Positions 2,394 through 42,736 of a stretch of 64,000 nt of DNA are shown here, one piece after another. The notes under the pieces were generated by a model. It was given only the letters and a program-made list of their open reading frames with translations. It made no database searches and was not told the origin of the DNA. Position 1 is the first letter of the stretch; every line of letters begins with the position of its first letter. Source of the DNA: Rhizobiaceae bacterium (lineage in GTDB: Bacteria; Pseudomonadota; Alphaproteobacteria; Rhizobiales; Rhizobiaceae). A program made the translations under genes and the position numbers. The stretch spans positions 7,567 to 71,566 of the forward strand of contig JBFOMG010000004.1 in assembly GCA_040830725.1 (NCBI GenBank), in the 5' to 3' direction.

Positions 2394-3734
2394 TCAACGC
2401 GACGTGGCTTGACGAAGGTAGTCGATCAGGTCGTCGCGATCTTGTTTTCTGGCAATACGCTGCATCGGCATTTTCGATCCGGGGATGTAGTGATCAGGCC
2501 CCAGATCAAACAGTTTGTCTATCGTGTCGTCACCCCAGACGATATCAGATCCGGACAGGGTTTTGGAGAAATTGTAACCGTCCAGGGCGCCTGCCCTTCG
2601 GCCAAACAGGCCATAAAGCGTTGGCCCGGCCCTGCGGCTGCCTTCGGCTTCGAGCGAATGACAGATTGAACACTTTCTTGCAAACTGCCGTTCGCCGTTT
2701 TCCATTTTGGCCGGATCGCGAAGAAATTCCGGATTGCTGTCAGCCATCGGCCCGAGATCCTTGATCTGGTCGAGCGGCCAGGAATAGACAATGCTTTCAA
2801 TGCCGCCGGCATGAATGTTTTTGCCGTCGTTAGAGAATGCGAGCGCCCAGATCGGACCTCGCAATGCGGCGCGAAAATCATGGATGATTTTCCACTGGTC
2901 CGTATCAACAATCATGATAAAGCCATCGCCATCACCGACCGCTATCTTGTCGCCTGAATCCGTCTGGGAAATCGAAAGAATAGGTCGCCGCTCAAGGGTA
3001 AAATCTGCAATTTGCTCGTCGGTGGACAAGTCGATGACACGCGTGACGCCGTCGACCGCACCATAGGCAAGCCAGCCGTGCCGGTGATTGAGTGTCATGA
3101 CATTGACGCCAAACCCGTGCCGCAGCATCAGGCGTTTTTCCCTGCGTCCGCCCACGTCCCAAGTACGGATAGTTCCGTCGGTTGACGCCGAATAAAGGAG
3201 AGAACCATCGGCAGAAAATGCGACATCATTGACGCCGGATTTGTGGCCGCCCAGGAATGAGACGTCGCCGCGGTCATCAAGCGGCCAAAGCCCGATCGTG
3301 CCGTCCCAGCTTGCTGTTGCCAACAGCGATTGATCCGGAGCCACAGCAAGCGCCATTATTTTGGCCTTGTGCCGCCCGAGCATCCTTCCGGTTCCAGACG
3401 CCCTGTCCCAGAGGCGGACGGAATAATCATCTCCGGCAGAGGCCAATCGATGTTCGCCGATGAAAACGACCGAGTTGACCGCCGCCTCGTGCGCTTCCAG
3501 CCAAACCGGCTTGCGGCCGTCCCAGATGCCGACTGAATTGTCAAAGCTGGCTGTTGCAATGGTTCCGCTATCCGATGACACCGCAACATCCATCACCGGG
3601 CCGCCATGCCCCTTGAGCGTGAAAAATTCTCCGGCGCTGGTTGACAGCGGAACAATGGCCATGCTCAGCGCCGCAGCGACCATAGCGCCAAACGCGGATA
3701 TTCGAAAATCAGCCACGGGATCGGAGTTGGTCAC
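2394..3734 (-). CDS. membrane-anchored/periplasmic WD40 beta-propeller fused to a C-terminal class I cytochrome c domain
   Basis: 446 aa. Repeated WD40-type blades (SFDNSVGIWD, GDDYSVRLWD, SWDGTIGLWP, STDGTIRTWD). C-terminal CSICH heme motif followed by GP.LYGLFGR...IPGSKMP. GTGA overlap with the gamma-subunit stop. Confidence 0.85.
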   Translation of the reverse strand: MTNSDPVADFRISAFGAMVAAALSMAIVPLSTSAGEFFTLKGHGGPVMDVAVSSDSGTIATASFDNSVGIWDGRKPVWLEAHEAAVNSVVFIGEHRLASAGDDYSVRLWDRASGTGRMLGRHKAKIMALAVAPDQSLLATASWDGTIGLWPLDDRGDVSFLGGHKSGVNDVAFSADGSLLYSASTDGTIRTWDVGGRREKRLMLRHGFGVNVMTLNHRHGWLAYGAVDGVTRVIDLSTDEQIADFTLERRPILSISQTDSGDKIAVGDGDGFIMIVDTDQWKIIHDFRAALRGPIWALAFSNDGKNIHAGGIESIVYSWPLDQIKDLGPMADSNPEFLRDPAKMENGERQFARKCSICHSLEAEGSRRAGPTLYGLFGRRAGALDGYNFSKTLSGSDIVWGDDTIDKLFDLGPDHYIPGSKMPMQRIARKQDRDDLIDYLRQATSR

Positions 3735-4942
3735 TCAGCAGGAACAATTTCTCCATCGGGCGCTTCGGTTTCTGCATTCATAACCTCCTCAACCCAAAGG
3801 CTGTGATGTTCCCTCGCCCATTGCAAATCGACTTCGCCGGATCCCATTGCGTCATACGCTCCTTCCATGCCCACCGAGCCGATATAGATATGGGCCAAAA
3901 TTATCGCGATCAGCACGAAAGCGACGATCCCGTGCCACAGTTGCGCATATTGCATTTCTTCGTGTGGCGTCAGTTCCGTTGGAAGCGCACCCATACCGGG
4001 CAGACTGGTGATGCCGATTGCCGACAGCTTCTGGAAAGTCACTTCGAACATGGGTAGTTCGAAGGGGAACAGCAATGACAGGCCGGATGCTGAAATTGAT
4101 GCGCCAAGAATGATCACCGACCAGAAAATCAGTTTCTGGCCCGCATTGAATTTCTTTGCCGGTGGATGAACGCCCTTTACAAAAAGGCCGCCGCCCTTTG
4201 CCATCCATGTCAAATCGGTTCTGCTGGGCAAATTGTGGATCACCCACATGACGAACACCATCACCAGACCGAGGATGAATGCCCACGAAACACTGTTGTG
4301 AACCCATTTGGATGCGAGTGCCAAATTCGAAAACATATCCTTGCCGAGTATTGGAATAAGCGCTGTACGGCCGAACAAGGTAATAAGCCCGGTGATGCCC
4401 AACAGGATGAACGACCCTGCCAGTAGCCAGTGGCCAAATCGCTCAATCGCCTTGAAGCGAGTGATCGTTCGTCCGGTTTTCTCTCCGTCAATCCGGATGC
4501 GACCGCGAAGCGCAAAAAACAGCGCAAGCAAAACAAGAGTGGCGAGCAACAAATACCCGCCCCACTGCGCCATGGGTCCGGCCCGGAACTCGAGCCAGCG
4601 CATGCCGCCATCCTGCACCAAAATTGCACCGACCTCGCCACCGGAAGAAGCATTGATGTCGGCCGAGCCGTAACGGAGTGCTCGCCAAAGCTCTGGATCC
4701 GAAGCACCGCCAAGCGTTCCCAATTGCGATGAAATTGCCGCTGCGCTGTCCGGATCGCCGATCGCTTCGCGTCTGAACGCATCGTCGATCTTCTCCCCGC
4801 GCTGGCGCGCCATGATGTCTTCCAGCGTCTGGGCTCCGCCGGTTGACGACCGGTCGCCGCTTTCCTGGGCCATTGGCGTGACCGGTGCAAAAATGCCGGA
4901 AAGGGCAATCGACAACAGGAGGACAAACAACGCGCGCATCAT
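3731..4942 (-). CDS. formate dehydrogenase gamma subunit (cytochrome b) with long periplasmic N-terminal extension
   Basis: Track ORF 3731..5554 trimmed to the ATGATG at 4942 (MMRALFVLLLSIALSG signal-like start), because the upstream part overlaps the beta-subunit gene. C-terminal multi-TM His-containing cytochrome b region. Confidence 0.8.
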   Translation of the reverse strand: MMRALFVLLLSIALSGIFAPVTPMAQESGDRSSTGGAQTLEDIMARQRGEKIDDAFRREAIGDPDSAAAISSQLGTLGGASDPELWRALRYGSADINASSGGEVGAILVQDGGMRWLEFRAGPMAQWGGYLLLATLVLLALFFALRGRIRIDGEKTGRTITRFKAIERFGHWLLAGSFILLGITGLITLFGRTALIPILGKDMFSNLALASKWVHNSVSWAFILGLVMVFVMWVIHNLPSRTDLTWMAKGGGLFVKGVHPPAKKFNAGQKLIFWSVIILGASISASGLSLLFPFELPMFEVTFQKLSAIGITSLPGMGALPTELTPHEEMQYAQLWHGIVAFVLIAIILAHIYIGSVGMEGAYDAMGSGEVDLQWAREHHSLWVEEVMNAETEAPDGEIVPAE

Positions 4943-5039
4943 GGCAGCACCTCGGTTCAAGCCGGAATATTGCAAGTAAGTTCGACCGGGGCGATCTGTC
5001 GACCGCCCCGGGAAAGGCAATGGGGACAAATGTGCGGCG

Positions 5040-5633
5040 TCAGCCGCCCTTTTGCCCGTATGCCGTGCCCCAGCCCCAGGCACCCGTACCGAATCCGCGG
5101 GCAACAACACGCTCGCGGTAGATGCCTGAAACCACATCGCCATCGCCGGCAAGCAGTGCCTTGGTCGAGCACATTTCTGCGCAAATCGGCAACTTGCCTT
5201 CAGCAATACGGTTGCGTCCGTATTTCTGGAACTCCGCCTGGCTATGGTTTTCTTCCGGTCCACCGGCGCAGAAGGTACATTTGTCCATCTTACCGCGCGA
5301 ACCGAAATTGCCCGCCTGCGGAAACTGCGGTGCTCCGAACGGGCACGCATAGAAGCAGTAACCGCAACCAATGCAGAGGTCCTTCGAATGCAGGACCACG
5401 CCATCGTCGTTCTGATAGAAACAGTCGACAGGGCATACCGCCATGCATGGCGCGTCGGAACAATGCATGCAGGCCACGGAGATCGACCGCTCACCTGGGC
5501 TGCCATCATTGATGGTGACCACCCGGCGACGATTGATACCCCAAGGTACTTCATGCTCGTTCTTACAAGCCGTCACGCAGGCGTTGCATTCAATGCAGCG
5601 TTCGGCGTCGCAGAGGAATTTTGCTCTAGCCAT
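5040..5633 (-). CDS. formate dehydrogenase beta subunit, 4Fe-4S ferredoxin-type
   Basis: 197 aa. CIECNACVTACK, CMHCSDAPC, CIGCGYCFYACP and CTFC cluster motifs. Confidence 0.9.
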   Translation of the reverse strand: MARAKFLCDAERCIECNACVTACKNEHEVPWGINRRRVVTINDGSPGERSISVACMHCSDAPCMAVCPVDCFYQNDDGVVLHSKDLCIGCGYCFYACPFGAPQFPQAGNFGSRGKMDKCTFCAGGPEENHSQAEFQKYGRNRIAEGKLPICAEMCSTKALLAGDGDVVSGIYRERVVARGFGTGAWGWGTAYGQKGG

Positions 5634-5644
5634 TATTTTTCTCC

Positions 5645-8539
5645 TTATGCTGCAGTGATCTTGCAGAGAGTGGCCTTGGTCTCCTGCATCTGGGTGACCG
5701 AGTCGTAACCGTAGGTCTGCGCGGTGTTCGACGACTCACCCAGAACGTATGGATCGGCCCCTTCGGGATATTTGTCCCTCAAGTCGGCGCCCTCAAAATG
5801 GCCGCCGAAGTGGAACGGCATAAACGCAACTCCCGAACCAACTCTCTCGGTGACCATGGCCATGACCTTGACCTTGGCGCCTTCGGCACCTTCGACCCAG
5901 ACCTGTTCGCCGTCGCGGATACCCAAATTGTTGGCATCGCGCGGGTTGATTTCGACGAACATGTCCTGCTGCAGTTCAGCAAGCCACGGATTGGAGCGCG
6001 ATTCATCGCCACCACCCTCGTACTCAACCAGGCGGCCGGACGTCAGGATCATTGGATAATCCTTCGAGAAGTCCTGCTTCTGGATCGACGCATACATGGT
6101 CGGCAGACGATAGAACTTGCGGTCCTCATAGGTCGGATAATCGGCCACGAGATCGCGACGAGGCGTGTAGAGCGGCTCGCGGTGCAAGGGCACCGGATCC
6201 GGGAACGTCCACACAACCGCGCGGGCCTTTGCATTACCAAATGGTGCGCAGCCATGCTTGATCGCTACGCGCTGGATACCGCCAGACAGATCGGTTTTCC
6301 AGTTGGTCTTCGGCCCTGCCACCGCGTCGATCGCAGCACGCTCGTCATCAGTCAGGTCTCCATCCCAACCCAGATCCATCAGCATCTGCATGGTGAATTC
6401 CGGATAACCATCCTGAATTTCCGAACCAGGATTGTAGACGCCCTCCGCCAGGAGATTGTCGCCATCCCGCTCAACGCCGAAGCGGGCACGGAAACACAAG
6501 CCGCCCTCTGCAACAGGCTTGGACATGTCATAGAGGTTTGGCGTACCGGGATGACCCATTTCGGCTGTACCCCAGCAAGGCCAAGGCAGGCCGTAATAGT
6601 CACCGTCAGCCGGACCGCCAATGGCCTGCAGCGTCGTCCTGTCAAACGTATGCTGATTGGCCATGTGCAGTTTCAGCCGTTCGGGCGACTGACCAGTATA
6701 GCCAATCGTCCAGAGCCCGCGGTTGAATTCGCGGGTGATGCTCTCGACGTTTGGTGTTTCCGCATCTTCCATCTCGATGTTGCGGAAGAAACGGTCAGCC
6801 CATCCGAACTTGTTGGCAAACTTCGCCATGATGACTTCATCCGGCAAGCTTTCAAACAGCGGATCGACAACCTTGTCGCGCCACTGGAAGGAGCGGTTTG
6901 ATGCCGTCACCGAACCGCGTGTCTCAAACTGCGTGCACGCGGGCAGCAGATAGACACCGTCGGTCCTGTCATGGAGAACCGCCGAGACGGTTGGATATGG
7001 ATCGATCACGACAAGCATGTCGAGCTTCTCCATCGCCGTCTTCATTTCCTTCATGCGGGTCTGCGAGTTCGGTGCATGGCCCCACAGAACCATTGCCCGT
7101 ACATTATTGGGCTGGTCGATGTTGTCGGCATCCTCGAGAATGCCGTCGATCCAGCGGCTGACCGGAATACCCGTCAAGTTCTGGAGCGACTTTTCTTTGC
7201 CGTCAGCACCGGTGATCTTGTCAAACTGGCCTGCCAGCCAATCCGGATCCTCTTCCCAGACCCGGGCCCAGTGCGCCCACGAACCTTTCGAAAGGCCGTA
7301 GTAGCCGGGCAAAGTGTGACTGAGGACGCCAAGATCTGTTGCGCCCTGCACGTTGTCGTGGCCACGGAAGATATTGGTTCCGCCGCCGGTGGTTCCCATA
7401 TTGCCAAGCGCCAACTGCAAGACACAGTAAGCACGCGTGTTGTTGTTGCCGTTGGTATGCTGGGTTCCACCCATGCACCAGATCACCGTACCGGGACGGT
7501 TGTTGGCCATGGTGCGGGCAACACGGCGAAGCTGCGAACCGGGTGTGCCGGTGACGCGCTCAACTTCCTCAGGCGTCCATTTAGCGACTTCCGCCTTGAT
7601 CTGGTCCATGCCCCACACGCGGGTGCGAATGAACTCATTGTCTGCCCAGTCGTTCTCGAAAATGTGCCAGAGAATACCCCAGATCAGCGCAACGTCCGTG
7701 CCCGGGCGGAAACGCACATATTCATCCGCATGGGCGGCAGTGCGTGTGAACCGCGGATCACATACGATCAGTGGCGCATTGTTTTGCTCCTTTGCCCGCA
7801 GCACGTGCAGCAAGGATACAGGGTGCGCCTCGGCAGGGTTGCCACCGATAATGAAGATCGCCTTGGAATTGTGGATGTCGTTGTAGCTGTTTGTCATGGC
7901 GCCGTAGCCCCATGTGTTTGCCACGCCGGCGACCGTCGTTGAATGACAGATGCGTGCCTGATGGTCCACATTGTTCGTGCCCCAGTAGGCTGCGAACTTT
8001 CTGAACAGGTAGGCCTGTTCGTTATTGTGCTTGGCCGATCCAAGCCAATAAACACTGTCCGGCCCGCTTTCGTCGCGGATTTTCATCATGCCATCGCCGA
8101 TCTCGTTGATGGCCTCTTCCCAGCTGACGCGTTTCCACTCGCCGCCTTCTTTCTTCATCGGATACTTCAGGCGGCGCTCGCCATGGGCGTGCTCGCGTAC
8201 CGATGCGCCTTTTGCGCAATGCGCGCCGAGATTGAACGGGCTGTCCCAGCCGGGTTCCTGGCCGACCCAGACACCGTTGGAAACTTCAGCGATAACTGTG
8301 CAGCCAACTGAACAGTGGGTGCAAACCGATTTGACGGTTTCTACCGCGTCGTTGCCGTTGCTTTGAGCCTTCGCCTTCGTCACCGACCCGGCAGTGGCGC
8401 CAATAGCCGCCAGACCGCCCACGGCCAGTCCCGAACCACGCAAAAATGCGCGGCGGTCAACCGATTTGTCCGCAAAACTTGACAGGATACTGGCCCGCTG
8501 GGGGCGTCTCGCAACCCCGTTGGTCTTTTTCCTTAGCAT
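5645..8539 (-). CDS. formate dehydrogenase alpha subunit, bis-MGD molybdopterin enzyme, Tat-exported, Cys-type
   Basis: 964 aa. Twin-arginine signal DRRAFLRGSGLAVGG. N-terminal CTHCSVGC Fe-S motif. ARICHSTTVAG active-site region with Cys (TGT at 7946-7948) where Sec-type enzymes have TGA. Strong GGAGAGAGGAA RBS. Confidence 0.95.
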   Translation of the reverse strand: MLRKKTNGVARRPQRASILSSFADKSVDRRAFLRGSGLAVGGLAAIGATAGSVTKAKAQSNGNDAVETVKSVCTHCSVGCTVIAEVSNGVWVGQEPGWDSPFNLGAHCAKGASVREHAHGERRLKYPMKKEGGEWKRVSWEEAINEIGDGMMKIRDESGPDSVYWLGSAKHNNEQAYLFRKFAAYWGTNNVDHQARICHSTTVAGVANTWGYGAMTNSYNDIHNSKAIFIIGGNPAEAHPVSLLHVLRAKEQNNAPLIVCDPRFTRTAAHADEYVRFRPGTDVALIWGILWHIFENDWADNEFIRTRVWGMDQIKAEVAKWTPEEVERVTGTPGSQLRRVARTMANNRPGTVIWCMGGTQHTNGNNNTRAYCVLQLALGNMGTTGGGTNIFRGHDNVQGATDLGVLSHTLPGYYGLSKGSWAHWARVWEEDPDWLAGQFDKITGADGKEKSLQNLTGIPVSRWIDGILEDADNIDQPNNVRAMVLWGHAPNSQTRMKEMKTAMEKLDMLVVIDPYPTVSAVLHDRTDGVYLLPACTQFETRGSVTASNRSFQWRDKVVDPLFESLPDEVIMAKFANKFGWADRFFRNIEMEDAETPNVESITREFNRGLWTIGYTGQSPERLKLHMANQHTFDRTTLQAIGGPADGDYYGLPWPCWGTAEMGHPGTPNLYDMSKPVAEGGLCFRARFGVERDGDNLLAEGVYNPGSEIQDGYPEFTMQMLMDLGWDGDLTDDERAAIDAVAGPKTNWKTDLSGGIQRVAIKHGCAPFGNAKARAVVWTFPDPVPLHREPLYTPRRDLVADYPTYEDRKFYRLPTMYASIQKQDFSKDYPMILTSGRLVEYEGGGDESRSNPWLAELQQDMFVEINPRDANNLGIRDGEQVWVEGAEGAKVKVMAMVTERVGSGVAFMPFHFGGHFEGADLRDKYPEGADPYVLGESSNTAQTYGYDSVTQMQETKATLCKITAA

Positions 8540-8642: not shown

Positions 8643-8834
8643 CTAGAACTTTGCCGATGCAAAATAGGCGCGCGTATGCGCAGTATCCTGCATGCGGTCG
8701 CCAGCCTCTTCAGCCTTGGCTTCCGCTTCCGAAACACCTGCCGCAACAGCTGCTGCAGCCGCTGGCGCAGAAAGGCCAGCCAGTTTCAGAAAATCGCGGC
8801 GGTCATTTCGTTTGACCTCCTCGTTTTTACGCAT
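8643..8834 (-). CDS. small twin-arginine-signal protein of the 'formate dehydrogenase region TAT target' type
   Basis: 63 aa. RRDFLKLAG Tat motif, then an Ala-rich segment. GGGAGGA RBS. Lies immediately upstream of the alpha subunit. Confidence 0.8.
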   Translation of the reverse strand: MRKNEEVKRNDRRDFLKLAGLSAPAAAAAVAAGVSEAEAKAEEAGDRMQDTAHTRAYFASAKF

Positions 8835-8885: not shown

Positions 8886-9503
8886 TCAGCCGGTCCCCAT
8901 CCGGAATGCCTCCTGCTCGATATCCATGAACAGCCGGCCGACAGCGCCGACCGATGCGTAGAACACCGAACTTTTGGTTGATTCCAAATCCGTGAAAAAA
9001 TGCCCGGCCCATGGGCCGATGTGCTTGTCGAAGAAAGCCTTTTGCTCTTCCAATTCGGCGACACTGCCAAAGCGGCCCATAATCAGCCCGCCCATCATCT
9101 CCATCAGCGAGGCAATATTGTCTTCCGGTTCGAAAACGTTTTCAGCTCTGGCAATCTGGCGCTCTGCCATTTCTCCGCGCAATTGTGCCAGCGGTTTCTC
9201 GTTCAGGAACCCTGTCAGATAGTATGATGCATAGGGAAGCAATTCTCCCCGGCTCAACCCGACAAATAACGTGTTGAATTCGCGCTCTGCTGCCTTCGGT
9301 TTCGTGACGTTTGCCACACGCGCCAGTCCTGAGATCGCTTCGCCCAGGTCGCTGGAATCACCTGTCAATTCGGCAGTCTGCTGAAGGAGGCCGGCGTTGG
9401 GTGGGCGGGACAAAATCAAGCCTAGATAGTCGTACAGGTCCGCGCGCATCCGGTCTTCCGGTGCAACCAGTCCCAAAACGGCTTCAGCGGCTGCTGACAT
9501 CAA
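8886..9503 (-). CDS. TorD/DmsD-family redox enzyme maturation chaperone
   Basis: 205 aa. LFVGLSRGELLPYASYYLTGFLNEKPL is typical of TorD-like chaperones. The start is TTG at 9503 or ATG at 9500, abutting the DUF3306 stop. Confidence 0.8.
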   Translation of the reverse strand: MMSAAAEAVLGLVAPEDRMRADLYDYLGLILSRPPNAGLLQQTAELTGDSSDLGEAISGLARVANVTKPKAAEREFNTLFVGLSRGELLPYASYYLTGFLNEKPLAQLRGEMAERQIARAENVFEPEDNIASLMEMMGGLIMGRFGSVAELEEQKAFFDKHIGPWAGHFFTDLESTKSSVFYASVGAVGRLFMDIEQEAFRMGTG

Positions 9504-10154
9504 CTATCCCTTTGCCTCGTGACCTTGCAACTGTTGGTTCTCGCCCGAAAAATGAAACCGCATCCGGCGTATGGGCACTGCTCTGGCTTCCGACACCATG
9601 TTCACTTCAAGCGGCTGTCCTGCCTGTTCGGGAGGCTCACCTTCCGGATCATCTATTGAATCAGCTTCGGCTGACGCCGGAGTGATTTCCACGTCTTCTG
9701 CAAGGTACTCAGAGTCGCCTTCAGTTTCGGTCGAAATCTCAGCTTCATCATCCACATCTGCAAGCGCCTCGATATGTTTGAGCATGCCCTTTCCCACCTG
9801 ATAGGCAGTCTGCAAGTTTTCAACGACCGTTGCACCGTCGGTGTAATCCTCGCCATACTCAATCAGGCCATCAAGATTTGCGAGAGCCGGATTGCTGAGC
9901 CATAGCTTTCTGAGCGCTCGACGCCTGATGCGCTCCGGCACCGCCTTGCCCATGAATGCCTTGAAATCATCGCCTAATTGTAGCTCGTCTGGATCGGGGA
10001 GATTGAGCTCTTCAAGAATTTCACCGTCTGTTTTGGTTTCCAGCTCCTGCAATTCCGCTTCGCGTTGCGTGTCCTCCGCGACGGCGAGCTCGGCCTCTGC
10101 CTCAGCGCGGACACCGGCCTTTCGTTTGCTCCAGAAGTCAGTTGCGGAGGTCAA
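9504..10154 (-). CDS. DUF3306-like acidic low-complexity protein
   Basis: 216 aa, very Glu/Asp-rich. TTGA overlap with the upstream gene. The family call is from memory of FDH-neighbourhood families. Confidence 0.6.
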   Translation of the reverse strand: MTSATDFWSKRKAGVRAEAEAELAVAEDTQREAELQELETKTDGEILEELNLPDPDELQLGDDFKAFMGKAVPERIRRRALRKLWLSNPALANLDGLIEYGEDYTDGATVVENLQTAYQVGKGMLKHIEALADVDDEAEISTETEGDSEYLAEDVEITPASAEADSIDDPEGEPPEQAGQPLEVNMVSEARAVPIRRMRFHFSGENQQLQGHEAKG

Positions 10155-10705
10155 TGCAGTCGCTCCAGCTTGGCAGATTTCGGTGACCGATAGACGTCGG
10201 TCAGTTGCGGAATCCGGGGGTCGCCGACACCATCCTCGACAAGTTCGACGGTAACCCGGTCGCGGCGGCGTTTTACGAACTCTTCCGGCTCATGGTGCTC
10301 GTCAATGAAAGCCTTGATCCAGGCAATCAGGCCTGAAGGCATCGCGACCTTTTCGACGATATCCTCGCCGCTGTCTGCGTAGTCCTGGGCCTCGTATGGA
10401 GAAGCGGTTGCTAGCAGTACCTCCACAGGGATGTCGTCGCCGTTTGCCGGTTCCTGGCGCAGGATTACGAAGATTGAGGGGATTTTTTCGCTCAAGCCCG
10501 TCAGATAGGCTTCCGTGTCAGTCCGGTGCAATTCCAGAGTGACGGTTGCCGCGTGATATTCAACGGCGTCACCTTCTTTTCGCAGCACCTGCCAATTCGC
10601 AGGACCAGCACCGGGGAGGACTGATACAGCCTTCCAAGACCATTTGGCCCAACGCGTAACGCCCGGCAGCCGGCGCACGACAATACCGAGCGGCAAAGTC
10701 CGCAT
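10151..10705 (-). CDS. DUF3305-like protein
   Basis: Track ORF 10151..10777. I prefer the ATG at 10705 (MRTLPLGIVVRRLPGVTRWAKWSW), which matches the usual family N-terminus. The start is uncertain. Confidence 0.6.
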   Translation of the reverse strand: MRTLPLGIVVRRLPGVTRWAKWSWKAVSVLPGAGPANWQVLRKEGDAVEYHAATVTLELHRTDTEAYLTGLSEKIPSIFVILRQEPANGDDIPVEVLLATASPYEAQDYADSGEDIVEKVAMPSGLIAWIKAFIDEHHEPEEFVKRRRDRVTVELVEDGVGDPRIPQLTDVYRSPKSAKLERLH

Positions 10706-11079
10706 TCTTTCAATTTTACCGGACAATGCTCCTCCCAAAGCCTGCGCGGATATTTGTGCACGAACAGAATGCAACATATTGCATTATTTGCAAGCTCCGG
10801 GAGCTGGAATGCTGCAATTGTGAAGACTGTATTCGACTAAAGTGTAAGATGCTTTTCCGGAGCATCCTGAAAACGCACATTTGCTGATGGTTGCGCGCCA
10901 AAAACCCTCCGAATCGTCGTGACTCCAACGAGCTTTTGTCGCTCGGTTGAGAGCGGACAGTCGTGTGGCAGGAAATTAGGTTTCAAACGGCGGCTTTACT
11001 GCCGCGAAGTTTCGTGACTAGTTTCACTGTTCGCACACGGGCAGGCAAGTGCCAAAAGTGAAGTAAGAATTTGAAAAAG

Positions 11080-13056
11080 ATGCCTAAACAATTGGTATTG
11101 TGTGACTGTATGGGTTCGCAAGACATTGACGTAGATGCCTTGTCGAGCGCTTGCGGTGGCATGAAGTGTTCCAACGTTCACACCGAGTTGTGTCTGAGCG
11201 AGATCGAAATTGCTGCCGAAGCGATCCGGTCCGGTGACGCGATTATTGCATGTCAACAGGAGCGGCGGCGGTTCGAGGACCTTGCCGCGGAATTGGAAAT
11301 CGACCCGCCCGGATTTGTAGACATTCGCGACCGGGCCGGCTGGTCTGCCGACAAAAATCCAAAAACCGCCAAAATGGCAGCACTTGTCGCCGAGGCTCAA
11401 TTACCGGCGCAACGGCAAAAGTTGTTCGACATCGTTTCGGAAGGTCTTTGCCTTGTCATGGGCGCCAGTGAGACTGCTTTGGAAGCCGCTGATCAATTGA
11501 GCAACCACCTGAGCGTCACGGTCCTTCTTCCACCGGAATTCGCCAAGGATAGCCAGATTGGCGCCGGCGCCAGGCAATTTGACATTGTGTTTGGCGATCT
11601 GCGGATCGCATCAGGCTCGCTTGGCAATTTTGACCTTACAATCGACAAATTCACTGAGCCAGTACCAGGTGGGCGGGATTCATCCACCTGCACAGAAGCT
11701 CGCGACGGAGCGCAGTCACAATGCGATATCATTGTCGATCTGTCGGGTGCAGCACCTCTGTTTCCAGCCCACAAGAAACGTGACGGATATCTGCGCGCTG
11801 ATCCCCGGTCAGCCGGTGCGGTCGCCAAAACAGTGCTGGATGCATCGCACCTTACCGGCACGTTCGAAAAACCGCTCCATGTAAGGCTGGACGAGCAATT
11901 ATGCGCCCATTCACGGGCGCAAAAAACGGGGTGTTCAAAGTGCCTGGACAATTGTCCGACCGGGGCGATTACGCCGAACGGAGACTTCGTCACCGTTGAT
12001 CCAGCGATCTGTGCAGGCTGCGGCACTTGTTCCGCAATCTGTCCTTCCGGCGCAATCTCATATGATACACCAGCGCCAGCCGAAACGTTCAAGCGTATCG
12101 AAACACTGGCTTCCACCTATCGTAAAATTGCCAAATCGCCACCGAGGTTGCTGGTTCACGATGAAGACCATGGCCGCGAAATGATCTCGCTTTGCGCGCG
12201 CCACGATCGCGGCCTGCCTTCAGATGTAATCCCAATGGAAGTCTCGGCGCTCGCAGCGTTTGGACACGCCGAAATGTTGGCAGCCCTGGGTAGCGGATTT
12301 GCATCGGTAACTGTGTTGCTGTCTCCGAATACCGATAATGATGCAGTCGAGCGTGAGCTTATGATCGTATCGGCCATTGGCGGGACGGGAGCCATCAATC
12401 TTCTGGACATCGCCGATCCGGCCCACCTTGCGGATCACCTCTACAACCAGGCCGAACTCAATGATCCAGTGGTCAAGCCGGTTCTCCCACTGGGTTCCCG
12501 GCGCCAGGTAACCCGCCTAGCTGCAAAGGCCATCAGGCCCGATGTAAACACAATCGAATTACCCCAGGGCGCGCCCTATGGCACGATAATGGTCGATACT
12601 GAAGCATGCACACTTTGTCTTGCCTGTGTGTCGCTCTGCCCGTCCGGTGCCCTGGGAGACAATACGGAATCTCCGCAACTTCGTCTTCAGGAAAGCGCGT
12701 GCCTGCAATGTGGCCTGTGCAAAAACACCTGCCCGGAATCCGCTATTTCCCTGAAACCACAACTCAATCTTGCTGACGAGGCGCTGTCGCACCAAGTGCT
12801 GCACGAAGAAGAACCTTTTGCCTGCATCGAATGCGGAAAACCATTTGGCGTGAAATCCACGGTCATGCGGATCACCGAAAAACTGGCTGGCAAACATGCC
12901 ATGTTCGAGAACTCAGACGCCGTGAAAATCATCCAGATGTGCGATGATTGCCGTGTGAATGCGCAGTTTCACTCCGAGAACAATCCATTTGCCGGCGGAG
13001 AGCGCCCACGTGTACGCACAACAGACGACTACCTGTCGAAAAGACGGGATCATTGA
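11080..13056 (+). CDS. large polyferredoxin (four 4Fe-4S-type motifs plus N- and C-terminal Cys clusters)
   Basis: About 658 aa. CSKCLDNCP, CAGCGTCSAICP, CTLCLACVSLCP, CLQCGLCKNTCP and C-terminal CIECG...CDDC. TTG at 11071 is an alternative start. Confidence 0.8.
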   Translation: MPKQLVLCDCMGSQDIDVDALSSACGGMKCSNVHTELCLSEIEIAAEAIRSGDAIIACQQERRRFEDLAAELEIDPPGFVDIRDRAGWSADKNPKTAKMAALVAEAQLPAQRQKLFDIVSEGLCLVMGASETALEAADQLSNHLSVTVLLPPEFAKDSQIGAGARQFDIVFGDLRIASGSLGNFDLTIDKFTEPVPGGRDSSTCTEARDGAQSQCDIIVDLSGAAPLFPAHKKRDGYLRADPRSAGAVAKTVLDASHLTGTFEKPLHVRLDEQLCAHSRAQKTGCSKCLDNCPTGAITPNGDFVTVDPAICAGCGTCSAICPSGAISYDTPAPAETFKRIETLASTYRKIAKSPPRLLVHDEDHGREMISLCARHDRGLPSDVIPMEVSALAAFGHAEMLAALGSGFASVTVLLSPNTDNDAVERELMIVSAIGGTGAINLLDIADPAHLADHLYNQAELNDPVVKPVLPLGSRRQVTRLAAKAIRPDVNTIELPQGAPYGTIMVDTEACTLCLACVSLCPSGALGDNTESPQLRLQESACLQCGLCKNTCPESAISLKPQLNLADEALSHQVLHEEEPFACIECGKPFGVKSTVMRITEKLAGKHAMFENSDAVKIIQMCDDCRVNAQFHSENNPFAGGERPRVRTTDDYLSKRRDH

Positions 13057-13802
13057 TGTTTGATCGGCGCACCAAGATTAGCGGGGGAAATCGTCGCAGC
13101 GTAGGCCATGATCGCCTCGAGATCTTCAAGCGTCATTTCCAACGGCGCGATCGGCGAAGGCCGCTGGGAGCTAAACGGCTCTGTGACTTCCTCGATCTGC
13201 GTGAATGCGGGGTGCGGGTTGAGCACGTAGAATGTCTGAAAACGCGCTTCCCAATCTTCAAAACTGCGCAAGAGCGAGAAGGATGGTGTGGATCCGATGG
13301 CGTTCATCCGGTTCGTTTCGTTAACGACGTGGCAGCGCCCACAATGGCGGAGGGACAACTTCTCTCCTGCAGCGGCGTCACCACCGTTCGAGACCACTTT
13401 TACCACGGCCACTTTCTTTGCCTGTGGCGAAAATGGCGCAACTCCATCCGGTTTGAACGAACCGATCGTCCGGCGTCCGACATCGGAAGCCAGCCATTTG
13501 GCAAACCGTTCGGCATGCGGCCGCCGGTCCGAGGCGGTAATTCCGAGATACCAGTTTTGCTCCACACCGCTGAATGCAATCGTTCCGGAGCTATCCGCAG
13601 AAAAACTCGCGTCCGCGGGTTCGCCAAAATTGACGACCGTGATGCGTATTCCGGTTTTCAGCGAAAAGCGCGGCAGCAAGTATTTGAGAAATCCCGTCTC
13701 GACAATATCGGGGTGTGCGCTGAGCTTGAATTCCCGCTCCTGCGCAACTGCAATGCCTGCGAAAACACCTGCAGATATTACCAATATGGCCAATCTGTGC
13801 AT
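13050..13802 (-). CDS. secreted protein: TupA/ModA-like N-terminal segment fused to a single-heme CxxCH domain
   Basis: 250 aa. Signal peptide MHRLAILVISAGVFAGIAVA. ETGFLKYLLPRFSLKTGIRITVV resembles tungstate/molybdate-binding proteins. CGRCH heme c motif. Its 3' end overlaps the polyferredoxin 3' end by 7 nt (convergent). Confidence 0.55.
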   Translation of the reverse strand: MHRLAILVISAGVFAGIAVAQEREFKLSAHPDIVETGFLKYLLPRFSLKTGIRITVVNFGEPADASFSADSSGTIAFSGVEQNWYLGITASDRRPHAERFAKWLASDVGRRTIGSFKPDGVAPFSPQAKKVAVVKVVSNGGDAAAGEKLSLRHCGRCHVVNETNRMNAIGSTPSFSLLRSFEDWEARFQTFYVLNPHPAFTQIEEVTEPFSSQRPSPIAPLEMTLEDLEAIMAYAATISPANLGAPIKHQ

Positions 13803-13903
13803 CGATTAATCCCGGTTTGCATCCCATCCCGGACCAATGAAGCGTAAATTGCACAGGACGATAAGGTCAATGCTCGTGATTCTATTGAAGGAGGGAGAGA
13901 ACC

Positions 13904-14098
13904 TTGAGTGACGAATTCAACATGTCGATGCGAAAATTTTTAAAACAGGTCGGCGTAACATCACAGCAAGCTATCGAGAACGCGATGCGAAGCGCCGAGG
14001 CTACCGGTGGGAAAAGCTATAAGGTGAAGGTGGTTTTGACGATCGAAGAAGTTGGCCTGGAACACGTTGTCGATGGATCAATCGAGGGTCCTGAGTGA
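13904..14098 (+). CDS. small conserved protein (DUF6494-like)
   Basis: 64 aa. FNMSMRKFLKQVGVTSQQAIENAMR. Strong GAAGGAGGGAGAG RBS. TTG start (ATG at 13922 is the alternative). Confidence 0.55.
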   Translation: MSDEFNMSMRKFLKQVGVTSQQAIENAMRSAEATGGKSYKVKVVLTIEEVGLEHVVDGSIEGPE

Positions 14099-14099
14099 C

Positions 14100-15191
14100 G
14101 TGAGCCTCAGCCGCGAAATAATCCATTCTGCGCTCAAGCCAGTCATCGACCCGGCTTCAAGGAGCGATATCGTTGCAGCAAACATCATCGACGACCTGGT
14201 GATCGATGATGACGGTGTCCGGCTGGTGCTCACCGTTGACCCATCATTCGCCGCTGAAATGGAAGCTGTTCGAGCAGCAGCAGAAAAGCGCATTAGCGCG
14301 GTGGCCGGCCGACGAAAAGTGACGGTCATTCTGACTGCGCATAGCGATGCACCGTCCGCCACAACCGGTCCGGATGATGATGAGCGCTCGCATGAATCCC
14401 CCCGCGAGAATGGAGCGGCCGGACCAGAAACAATACCGGGCATCGATCGCATCATTGCGGTTGCGTCGGGCAAGGGCGGGGTTGGCAAATCGACCGTTGC
14501 AGCGAATTTGGCATGCGCATTGGCACTTGGTGGTCACCGCGTCGGTCTGCTGGATGCAGATGTTTACGGCCCGTCACAACCCCGGATGCTTGGTATATCG
14601 GGCCGGCCGGCATCGCCGGACGGGCAGATGATCCTTCCGTTGCGCGGCCACGGGGTTACCTTGATGTCGATCGGCTTGCTTGCAGAGGAAGGCGAAGCAG
14701 TGGCTTGGCGGGGCCCGATGCTGATGGGAGCGCTGCAACAGATGCTGTCAAAAGTGCAGTGGGGGGCGCTTGACGCGTTGCTGGTGGATCTGCCGCCCGG
14801 GACTGGCGACGTTCAGATGACACTTGCACAGACGGTTCGGGTTGACGGCGCAATCGTCGTTTCGACCCCGCAGGACATTGCCTTGCTCGACGCCCGAAAG
14901 GGGATCGACATGTTCCGGCAAATGAATGTTCCGATATTTGGCCTGATTGAGAACATGTCGTCCCACATATGTTCGAAATGCGGTCACGAAGAGCACATTT
15001 TCGGGCATGGCGGCGTCAAGGCCGAAGCGGAAAAACTGGATGTACCGCTGTTGGGAACAATTCCCTTGCTGATGGACATTCGCACCGCATCAGACGACGG
15101 AACACCGATCGTAATTTCAATGCCTGAAAGCGCGGCCGCCGCTGCTTTCTCAGACATTGCCAGCAAGATCATTAAGGGCGAAGTCAAGTGA
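14100..15191 (+). CDS. apbC: Mrp/NBP35/ApbC-family iron-sulfur cluster carrier ATPase
   Basis: Deviant Walker A motif ASGKGGVGKST. CSKCGHEEHIFG motif. GTG at 14100 lies 1 nt after the upstream stop. The track ORF starts at 14052 and ATG 14073 is also possible. Confidence 0.9.
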   Translation: MSLSREIIHSALKPVIDPASRSDIVAANIIDDLVIDDDGVRLVLTVDPSFAAEMEAVRAAAEKRISAVAGRRKVTVILTAHSDAPSATTGPDDDERSHESPRENGAAGPETIPGIDRIIAVASGKGGVGKSTVAANLACALALGGHRVGLLDADVYGPSQPRMLGISGRPASPDGQMILPLRGHGVTLMSIGLLAEEGEAVAWRGPMLMGALQQMLSKVQWGALDALLVDLPPGTGDVQMTLAQTVRVDGAIVVSTPQDIALLDARKGIDMFRQMNVPIFGLIENMSSHICSKCGHEEHIFGHGGVKAEAEKLDVPLLGTIPLLMDIRTASDDGTPIVISMPESAAAAAFSDIASKIIKGEVK

Positions 15192-15895
15192 GCAGCCTTG
15201 TTTTCCCGCCTCTGATGAGCGGACAGGAGGTCGAGGCAAATGTCGACCCGTTCGAAAATGCCTGTGGCAGGGCTGCGCTCGGCTGCGATTCCGGTCTCGT
15301 CGTCTATCGCTTTGATCCGGATTGGTTGCGCGCAGCAATCGTCTTCGCGCCCGAAGTCCCGCTTGAGGACGCTGTTGTGATGATGCCCGCCTGCGGTGTC
15401 GGATTTCAAAATGCGCTTGGAGCGCTGGCGCCGCCGGAGGTCGCTGTTCATCTGGAGTGGAGCGGCGGCATCCGCGTCAATGGCGCAGCTTGCGGCCGAT
15501 TGAGGATGGCGGCATCGAGCAAAGTTCCCAGCGTTGAACCGGATTGGCTGATTGTGGGGATCGAGATACCGCTACTGCCTGCCGGCGATTCCCCCGGGAA
15601 CGACCCCGCACGAACCACGCTCTTCGAGGAAGGCTGTGCGGAAGTCGAGCCGCCCCGGTTGCTGGAAAGCTGGACAAAACACACGCTGGTCTGGATCAAC
15701 CGGTGGGTAGGCGAAGGCGTCGAGCCGCTGCACGAGGCATGGCGTGGATTGGCGCATAATATGGGTGAAGAAACCGCAGAACTCGGCCACAGTGGCGTTT
15801 TCCTGGGCGTCGATGAACGGTTTGGAATGTTGTTGAGAAAAGGCGATGACACAGACCTCCTGCCGCTGACATTACTGCTGGAGGGCGAAGAATGA
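15188..15895 (+). CDS. biotin/lipoate protein ligase (BPL/LplA)-like protein lacking the GRGRxGR-type loop
   Basis: 235 aa. LRAAIVFAPEVPLEDAVVMMPACGVGFQNALGALAPPEVAVHLEWSGGIRVNGAACGRL follows the BirA-core pattern (..KWPNDi..ng.K.aGiL). GTGA overlap with the Mrp gene. Confidence 0.55.
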   Translation: MSSLVFPPLMSGQEVEANVDPFENACGRAALGCDSGLVVYRFDPDWLRAAIVFAPEVPLEDAVVMMPACGVGFQNALGALAPPEVAVHLEWSGGIRVNGAACGRLRMAASSKVPSVEPDWLIVGIEIPLLPAGDSPGNDPARTTLFEEGCAEVEPPRLLESWTKHTLVWINRWVGEGVEPLHEAWRGLAHNMGEETAELGHSGVFLGVDERFGMLLRKGDDTDLLPLTLLLEGEE

Positions 15896-16368
15896 ATCTC
15901 GCGCGGGCAATTCATGTCGATGAAAGCGACATGCACGTGTTTGCCCAACCGGCCCGCACCGGCGAATGGTGCATTTCAGGCGGCTTTGAATTCTCGAACT
16001 GGACCGAAGCGGATCTGACCGGCAAGGCGCGGCAGGCATTTGCGAATGGCTGGCTCGGTGTTGAGACGTTCGGGCGTGTGACCTTCGTTGCCGTGACCAA
16101 AATCGAACAGCACGAATTGGAAGGCCTGACCGAACAATTGGCCAAGCATTTCGTCGAAACCTATGGCGCTCCATCAATGGACGCCGCGATGCCGGTCGCA
16201 ATGCAAGAACTGGAGCATATGGCGGAGCTGTGTCGCGAACACCCTGCAAACACAATGATCACCGTCCATCGAGAGCTGGGCGAGGACGGCGTGAGAGAGA
16301 GTTTCCGCACGATCGCTCCGCAATCGGCAGGACTGGAGCAATTCGCAGTGCATGGATCTGGTGCATAG
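15892..16368 (+). CDS. conserved hypothetical protein (possibly DUF6505-like)
   Basis: 158 aa. ATGA overlap with the BPL-like gene. I recognise no motif. Confidence 0.55.
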   Translation: MNLARAIHVDESDMHVFAQPARTGEWCISGGFEFSNWTEADLTGKARQAFANGWLGVETFGRVTFVAVTKIEQHELEGLTEQLAKHFVETYGAPSMDAAMPVAMQELEHMAELCREHPANTMITVHRELGEDGVRESFRTIAPQSAGLEQFAVHGSGA

Positions 16369-41842: not shown

Positions 41843-42736
41843 ATGTCTGACCGAATAGATGAATTCGCCGTCAAACCGGATCCCGGCAATCCCCGGCTAT
41901 CCGTGAAAGTGCAGGGCATCGACCACACCGGAAATCCGATCACTCAGCAGGTGGTCACAGAAAAACCGCTGACGCTGTATCTCAACCGACAGGAGATCGT
42001 CACGATGATGACGATTGGCGATCATCCAAATCTGCTTGCGGTCGGTTATCTTCTGAACCAGAACATGCTCAGCCCGGAAGACGAGATTGAGGGAATTGAT
42101 GTCGATGAAGATCTTGATGTCATAGTCGTTCGGACAGCACGAGAAACCGATTATGAGACAAAGCTGCAAAAAAAGGTTCGCACGTCCGGCTGCGCTCAGG
42201 GAACTGTTTTTGGTGACGTCATGGAAGGCTTCGATTCAACCGCTCTGTCGACGACCGCCAGACTGAAAACATCCTGGCTTTATGAACTGACCAAGAAAAT
42301 CAACACGGCGCCAAGCCTTTATCTTGAAGCCGGTGCAATTCACGGCTGTGTGCTGTGCCAAGAGGACAAACCGCTTGCCTATATGGAAGATGTCGGCCGG
42401 CATAACGCCGTCGACAAGATTGCCGGCTGGATGTTCATGAACGGAATATCTGCAGCCGACAAGATTTTCTACACAACCGGACGCCTTACTTCGGAGATGG
42501 TGATCAAGACCGTGATGATGGGTATTCCCATATTGGTGTCGCGATCAGGTTTCACGGCTTGGGGTGTCGATCTCGCCCGCCAGGCGGGACTGACCTTGAT
42601 CGGCCGGGCTCGCGGCAAGCGATTTATCGCGCTCTCCGGTGAAAACCGAATTGTCTTCGACCTCGATCCTGAAACCATCGCCGAAGAAGGCGATCGTCAT
42701 CTCCGCCGGGGTGCCAGACGGGCGGCCGCCGAGTGA
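41843..42736 (+). CDS. fdhD: formate dehydrogenase accessory sulfurtransferase
   Basis: SGCAQGTVFG (catalytic Cys loop) and EDVGRHNAVDK motifs. ATG at 41843 preferred. Confidence 0.9.
   Translation: MSDRIDEFAVKPDPGNPRLSVKVQGIDHTGNPITQQVVTEKPLTLYLNRQEIVTMMTIGDHPNLLAVGYLLNQNMLSPEDEIEGIDVDEDLDVIVVRTARETDYETKLQKKVRTSGCAQGTVFGDVMEGFDSTALSTTARLKTSWLYELTKKINTAPSLYLEAGAIHGCVLCQEDKPLAYMEDVGRHNAVDKIAGWMFMNGISAADKIFYTTGRLTSEMVIKTVMMGIPILVSRSGFTAWGVDLARQAGLTLIGRARGKRFIALSGENRIVFDLDPETIAEEGDRHLRRGARRAAAE

Follow-up and report, generated by a model that had tools for sequence, protein, structure and literature searches.

A BirA-derived protein and a dedicated Mrp paralogue in a candidate accessory module for FDH3-type formate dehydrogenase in Alphaproteobacteria

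PDB entry 9VAP represents FdhA of SoFdhAB, the formate dehydrogenase of Shewanella oneidensis whose chaperone is named FdhT and whose associated mini-protein is named FdhX (PMC13066108). The Fe-S clusters named in this enzyme include at least A1 in FdhA and B1–B4 in FdhB, and the Shewanella work names FdhT and FdhX alone as helpers, with no discussion of biotin protein ligase (BPL)-like, DUF6505, DUF6494 or Mrp proteins (PMC13066108). A structural-genomics crystal structure, PDB entry 3BFM, is available for what its title calls a "biotin protein ligase-like protein of unknown function". Here we analyze a 64,000-nucleotide stretch of contig JBFOMG010000004.1 from a Rhizobiaceae bacterium (hereafter the window), in which four consecutive genes for a DUF6494 protein, an Mrp/ApbC protein, a BPL-like protein and a DUF6505 protein lie near a formate dehydrogenase of the FDH3 type. 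Their genomic context points to these four genes as a version of a conserved cytoplasmic accessory (biogenesis) module for FDH3, an enzyme exported by twin-arginine translocation (Tat), and we assign this reading a probability of roughly 55%. All four families are already catalogued in Pfam, one of them with a crystal structure. The first-pass annotation of this DNA had taken the function to be uncharacterized, and in agreement with it, we found in the literature no functional study of the DUF families, of 3BFM, of fdh3 helpers or of SO_4503–4506. The four open reading frames (ORFs) occupy positions 13904–16368 of the plus strand as follows.

13904–14098, plus strand: DUF6494 small protein of 64 amino acids, the first gene of the four, with a TTG start and AGGAGG upstream (PF20104, E = 1e-29)
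14100–15191, plus strand: predicted Mrp/ApbC-type Fe-S carrier paralogue of 363 amino acids, with a GTG start (PF10609, E = 4e-99, and an N-terminal FeS_assembly_P match)
15188–15895, plus strand: putative BirA-derived pseudo-ligase of 235 amino acids (PF16917, BPL_LplA_LipB_2, E = 1.8e-75; PF14563, DUF4444, E = 1e-17)
15892–16368, plus strand: DUF6505 protein of 158 amino acids (PF20115, E = 1e-80)

Direct reading of the sequence bears out the gene order and junctions first described for this locus, namely a 1-nt gap between DUF6494 and Mrp (TGA-c-GTG), a GTGA overlap between Mrp and the BPL-like gene, and an ATGA overlap between the BPL-like gene and DUF6505. This spacing suggests that the four genes are co-transcribed and co-translated. 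The GTG start of the Mrp gene is the RefSeq-annotated start in its Alloyangia orthologue. The Pfam assignments lie above the gathering thresholds, with 103 bits against 24 for DUF6494, 269 bits against 23.9 for DUF6505 and, over the full length of the BPL-like protein, 253 bits against 27 (PF16917) and 63.8 bits against 31.6 (PF14563). By comparison, a scan of NCBIfam returned no model for DUF6494, the BPL-like protein or DUF6505. A minus-strand gene (13050–13802) separates a polyferredoxin gene from the four-gene set; thus, the four genes have a 101-nt upstream region of their own in the window. The placement of the four genes in a polyferredoxin and formate dehydrogenase (FDH) neighbourhood, as originally proposed, is correct, except that this conserved opposite-strand gene lies between the polyferredoxin gene and the set. 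Promoter and terminator scans and an Rfam search around the operon gave no signals.

The association with FDH3 was assessed by profile searches of 200 genomes of the same class (Alphaproteobacteria), mostly one per family, and the loci were fetched and annotated. The BPL-like profile also finds true BirA in most genomes, so that E-values alone cannot separate the two, and they were told apart by the presence of a second copy and by inspection of motifs. The FDH3 marker DUF3305 is present in 26 of the 200 genomes. A BPL-like paralogue, recognized as a second BPL-family copy, occurs in 16 of the 26 DUF3305-positive genomes and in 0 of the 174 DUF3305-negative genomes (Fisher p = 3e-17, an overstatement given the non-independence of related genomes). 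A further ten profile matches, made up of the best single matches and of second matches from DUF3305-positive genomes, carry the KWPND motif and are true BirA proteins. DUF6505 is found in 13 of the 200 genomes, 11 of them DUF3305-positive. An FDH3/DUF3305 cluster is present in all 18 BPL-like genomes examined and lies within 10 kb of the BPL-like gene in 14 of them, in varied gene order; the module stands apart from the cluster in the remaining four (G178, G064, G127 and G170). The neighbourhood with FDH, DUF3305 and DUF3306 predicted from the window is therefore a strong synteny that crosses families.

The BPL-like gene is also carried by 75 plasmids or chromids. On a plasmid of Alloyangia pacifica, the genes for the polyferredoxin, DUF6494, Mrp, the BPL-like protein and DUF6505 are contiguous on one strand beside fdh3, with fdhD, mobA, mobB and glp near the module. 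On the same plasmid, a second, cytoplasmic FDH of the fdhF type adjoins together with fdhD, mobA, mobB and glp, and a gene for a HAMP sensor histidine kinase follows DUF6505 (L048, 13311–15254).

Comparison of the loci reveals several versions of the module. The order DUF6494–Mrp–BPL–DUF6505 is shared by the window, G112, G110, G322 and Alloyangia, and the commonest other order is BPL–(DUF6505)–DUF6352–DUF6494. In G266, DUF6494 comes first, and in G045 and G170, the BPL-like gene is alone at the locus. The BPL-like gene is accompanied by DUF6352, DUF6494 or both at 15 of the 18 loci, with DUF6505 and Mrp each present or not. In the class sample, 8 of the 16 genomes with a BPL-like paralogue lack DUF6505. 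The four-gene order is a lineage-specific version of a wider FDH3-linked module in Alphaproteobacteria.

The most constant neighbour is the polyferredoxin, co-oriented with the four genes in Alloyangia, and this would also suit a reading in which the four proteins are working partners of the polyferredoxin rather than one-time assembly factors, joining it in a redox or repair complex by which FDH3 or its cofactor is reactivated or protected. FdhAB of this type has been reported as O2-tolerant (PMC13066108) and might need such upkeep. However, the BPL-like, DUF6505 and DUF6494 proteins contain no redox-cofactor motifs. Furthermore, FDH3 is periplasmic and the four proteins, as read from sequence, carry no signal peptides, so that they could act only before export. 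We regard such a repair complex as improbable and favor a biogenesis module.

A sequence search of the PDB with the BPL-like protein yielded one match, 3BFM (60% identity, E = 5e-91). The AlphaFold model of the protein has a predicted local distance difference test score (pLDDT) of 95 and superimposes on 3BFM with a template modelling (TM) score of 0.94–0.96 in Foldseek, after which only class-I biotin protein ligases match (TM 0.70–0.78, 13–17% identity). The BirA-type core that had been recognized from the letters of the window is thus reproduced by the model. Consistent with this, an hhalign comparison of the BPL-like family with the genome's own BirA gave a probability of 95.6% over a region that begins at the KWPND strand and takes in the C-terminal domain, which indicates that DUF4444 is a disguised BPL_C domain; a homologue at locus L007 matches BPL_C directly. 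The top 50 fold matches of the model are all biotin protein ligases, with no LplA or LipB protein among them, and an affinity to LplA or LipB was accordingly rejected. Hence, of the designation "biotin/lipoate-ligase-like" in the first-pass annotation, the biotin-ligase side (BirA-derived) holds and the lipoate-ligase side does not.

By comparison with this well-kept fold, the signatures of ligase chemistry are missing. Opposite the GSTN biotin-contact motif of the genome's own BirA, the BPL-like protein has VDPF. The BirA loop GKGRNGRTW falls opposite a 16-column gap in all nine aligned BPL-like sequences, and a GRGRxGR-like motif was found in 0 of 120 BPL-like homologues; the Gly/Arg-rich loop that had been missed on first inspection is indeed absent. 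The lysine of KWPND is a glutamate in the window protein and is never lysine in 34 diverse BPL-like sequences, which have E, A, T, D, G, R, N, V or Q instead. The genome's own BirA gene, encoding both GKGRNGR and KWPND, sits after nuoN, and LipB is also encoded elsewhere in the genome. The possibility that the BPL-like protein is simply the cell's BirA or LplA is excluded because a normal BirA and LipB are encoded elsewhere. We conclude from the alignments and the model that the BPL-like protein is BirA-derived, with the two domains of the class-I BirA type, and lacks the ligase machinery, as its earlier description as a degenerate ligase implied.

The fold and both domains are fully kept and predicted with high confidence, and the family has its own near-invariant residue set (P7, P8, D20, P82, P83, W91, N98, W120, T143, L145, E148, G149, W173 and W185), as might be expected if the BPL-like protein were still an enzyme that attaches or activates another carboxylate or cofactor on an FDH3 component through an alternative active site. 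We consider continued catalysis of this kind very unlikely, however, given that all three signatures for biotin and ATP binding and adenylate formation are missing, that only the first glycine is kept in the motif aligned with GCGIN of the genome's own BirA, and that no neighbouring gene encodes a biotinyl or lipoyl acceptor domain. A non-catalytic role within the biogenesis module remains our preferred interpretation.

The Mrp protein of the window contains the motifs GKGGVGKS and CSKC, and the deviant Walker A and the C-terminal CxxC are present in all operon copies. Its score against the ApbC equivalog of NCBIfam, 337.7 bits, is just below the cut-off of 348, which makes it a family-level Mrp rather than a certified ApbC equivalog. 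A second copy, the housekeeping Mrp, is encoded on contig C5. The operon Mrps form a clade separate from the housekeeping Mrps with 100/100 support, and two Mrp copies each are present in G000, G110 and G112. The window Mrp is thus a member of a dedicated paralogue clade of Mrp/ApbC-type proteins with a predicted Fe-S carrier role.

The distribution of this clade is related to that of DUF6352. The four genomes that carry the dedicated Mrp clade and were checked in full (G000, G110, G112 and G322) have no DUF6352, and it is found in the module of 12 of the 14 other BPL-like genomes. The 12 module loci that carry DUF6352 showed no dedicated Mrp, with the genome-wide search covering G178 and G064. 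G178 has a single Mrp, of the housekeeping type, which adjoins BPL–DUF6505–DUF6352, and the single Mrp of G064, likewise of the housekeeping type, lies beside the FDH3 cluster. The pattern appears mutually exclusive and is possibly a non-orthologous replacement, in which the dedicated Mrp and DUF6352 may be interchangeable. It suggests a history in which the module once stood beside mrp, followed by duplication of mrp and loss of DUF6352.

The neighbouring genes of the window, from the polyferredoxin gene toward the start of the stretch, are as follows.

11071–13056, plus strand: cytoplasmic polyferredoxin of 661 amino acids, a conserved cluster partner with matches to several Fer4 families
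13050–13802, minus strand: conserved gene for a protein of 250 amino acids (faint Cytochrom_C match, E = 0.0019; C-terminal piece of TupA, E = 0.009)
10151–10777, minus strand: DUF3305 (PF11749, E = 4.5e-42)
9504–10154, minus strand: DUF3306 (PF11748, E = 5.8e-20)
8886–9503, minus strand: TorD/NarJ-type chaperone, FdhT-like (PF02613, E = 1.8e-28)
8643–8834, minus strand: twin-arginine mini-protein of 63 amino acids, FdhX-like (Tat-signal Pfam match, E = 3e-4)
5645–8539, minus strand: FDH3/FdhA-type catalytic subunit of 964 amino acids, with molybdopterin domains
5040–5633, minus strand: FDH3 beta (Fe-S) subunit of 197 amino acids (NF038355, FDH3_beta equivalog, 346.6 bits against a cut-off of 240)
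3731–4954, minus strand: cytochrome b gamma subunit, start approximate (TIGR01583, 126 bits against a cut-off of 116)
2394–3734, minus strand: WD40 propeller fused to a cytochrome c domain (WD40 and Cytochrom_C Pfam matches)

The catalytic subunit matches 9VAP over its full length with 1427 bits, and together with the subunit assignments, this clearly predicts an enzyme of the FDH3 or Shewanella FdhABC type, that is, a periplasmic formate dehydrogenase. The gene for the twin-arginine mini-protein is kept ahead of the alpha subunit gene in all loci, the WD40–cytochrome c gene is kept after the gamma subunit gene in many, and the polyferredoxin gene is divergent from DUF3305 in most. The TIGR01583 match covers residues 364–593 of a long ORF of 607 amino acids (3731–5554, minus strand), and the gamma subunit of Alloyangia has 406 amino acids. 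An apparent beta–gamma fusion over this long ORF was rejected as an over-extended gamma call, the FDH3 beta gene being a separate ORF (5040–5633) in another frame. DUF3305 of the window matches the C-terminal part of the MobA–DUF3305 fusion model of NCBIfam (NF011058, E = 1e-25), which hints at a role in handling the bis-molybdopterin guanine dinucleotide (bis-MGD) cofactor. In L004, L005 and L047, orthologues of the 13050–13802 protein with 40–63% identity are encoded at the equivalent place, flanked by the polyferredoxin gene and the module; the protein is also seen near FDH3 clusters in other genomes. Its TupA-like piece may hint at tungstate handling. The plus-strand ORF at 12948–13847 was discarded as a shadow of this conserved minus-strand gene. 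A gene for an FdhD-type sulfurtransferase (PF02634, E = 1.6e-77) lies at about 41954–42652 on the plus strand, about 25 kb downstream and apart from the FDH3 cluster.

The two remaining proteins of the module are less readily placed. The DUF6505 model has a pLDDT of 91 and finds no fold match in the PDB (best E-value 0.14, TM at most 0.27). The family comprises 797 cluster representatives at 50% identity, almost all of them stand-alone proteins of about 160 amino acids; the DUF6505 fusions in this representative set were either chimeric gene calls or partial read-throughs that run on into DUF6352, and gave no lead to function. DUF6494 orthologues are present in FDH3-linked modules.

Several observations weigh against a biogenesis module dedicated to FDH3. 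The BPL-like paralogue is missing from 10 of the 26 DUF3305-positive genomes and hence is not generally required. In 4 of 13 loci, DUF6505 neighbours a GGDEF gene and no BPL-like gene is close by (L008, 9736–11307; L010, 9779–11131; L011, 3715–5039; L016, 8133–10164). The GGDEF-linked DUF6505 copies are as similar to the window protein as the FDH3-linked ones in three cases (43–46% identity), that of L016 showing only 23%. In a phylum-wide sample, DUF6494 stands alone in 6 of 8 loci (L040–L045), with no FDH3 or BPL-like genes within 10 kb of it (about 9900–10300 of each locus, in L041 at 3444–4004); two of these six genomes belong to the window's own family and two to other classes. Owing to the GGDEF context of DUF6505 and the lone DUF6494 loci, neither family is exclusive to FDH3. 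In addition, no conserved Cys or His residues suggesting metal binding were found in the BPL-like protein or DUF6505. Finally, the published Shewanella expression plasmid carries fdhT and fdhX as its sole helpers, in a test that is not clean since the host was Shewanella itself (PMC13066108).

The placement of DUF6505 directly downstream of a gene for a GGDEF diguanylate cyclase in L008, L010 and L011, and its position some 0.9 kb behind such a gene in L016, also favor a regulatory or sensory module, in which the BPL-like protein binds a small metabolite and DUF6505 and DUF6494 relay the signal to FDH3 expression or activity rather than to its assembly. The sensor kinase gene behind DUF6505 in Alloyangia is compatible with this idea. 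Class-II BirA proteins double as repressors, and pseudoenzymes often turn into sensors, which speaks for the same view. On the other hand, Pfam and NCBIfam reveal no DNA-binding or signalling domain in any of the four proteins, and the dedicated Fe-S carrier and the polyferredoxin in the operon fit assembly better. Moreover, the close neighbours are maturation genes, including the TorD-like gene and DUF3305, the latter fused to MobA in one model. A regulatory function is thus unlikely in our estimate, and we return to biogenesis as the preferred explanation.

From the gene arrangement, we infer how such a biogenesis module might work and which client it might serve. Before export, the apo-enzyme would receive its Fe-S clusters and the metal–pterin cofactor. 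The dedicated Mrp paralogue would deliver [4Fe-4S] clusters to the alpha and beta subunits or to the 661-amino-acid polyferredoxin, and the polyferredoxin, as the cluster recipient, would act like NapF. The BirA-derived protein would no longer make an acyl-adenylate; it may instead bind a client or small ligand, or act as an adaptor for one, with no catalysis of its own, and its putative partners are DUF6505 and DUF6494. A more specific proposal, in which the pseudo-ligase now works as a chaperone that holds a cofactor or client in an undescribed maturation route for O2-tolerant, Shewanella FdhAB-like enzymes of the FDH3 type, and in which the dedicated Mrp and DUF6352 can replace each other, is distinctly more doubtful than the biogenesis role as such.

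Enzymes of the FDH3/FdhAB type are under development as O2-tolerant catalysts for CO2 reduction (PMC13066108). Heterologous production of FDH3 is limited by cofactor assembly, and the module provides a candidate list of helpers for better expression. If the proposed role is true, the module would fill a gap in the knowledge of how molybdenum and tungsten enzymes mature, and it would assign a role to four Pfam families that so far have none, as well as to an orphan crystal structure. It would likewise be a clear case of pseudoenzyme re-use, in which a biotin-ligase fold without its chemistry was recruited to a metalloenzyme operon.

Our comparison with known systems places the BPL-like protein in the same family as TM1040_0394 of Silicibacter sp. 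TM1040 (PDB 3BFM), with 60% identity, both domains present and no structural difference. The class-I biotin protein ligases of M. tuberculosis, A. aeolicus and P. horikoshii and the genome's own BirA have the catalytic fold and the C-terminal SH3-like domain in common with it. Unlike these ligases, the BPL-like protein lacks GSTN, GRGRxGR and the lysine of KWPND, and its genomic association is with FDH3, not with biotin enzymes. The Mrp of the window shares with the Mrp/ApbC/Nbp35 carriers a DUF59-type N-terminal domain, the deviant Walker A and the CxxC motif; it differs from a typical Mrp/ApbC in that it belongs to a second, operon-bound paralogue clade and scores just under the ApbC equivalog cut-off. 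In Rhodobacter, the cytoplasmic polyferredoxin NapF is needed for NapA maturation, as Olmo-Mira et al. reportedly showed in 2004. NapF, together with NapD, of the periplasmic nitrate reductase offers an analogy only, in that a cytoplasmic polyferredoxin is needed before a molybdoenzyme is exported by Tat, and we know of no NapF system with a BPL-like or DUF6505 partner. The enzyme itself is of the same type as that encoded by fdhTXABC of Shewanella oneidensis (SO_4507–4511; PDB 9VAP) and as FDH3 of Methylobacterium, and the window also has counterparts of FdhT, the TorD-like chaperone, and of FdhX, the Tat mini-protein.

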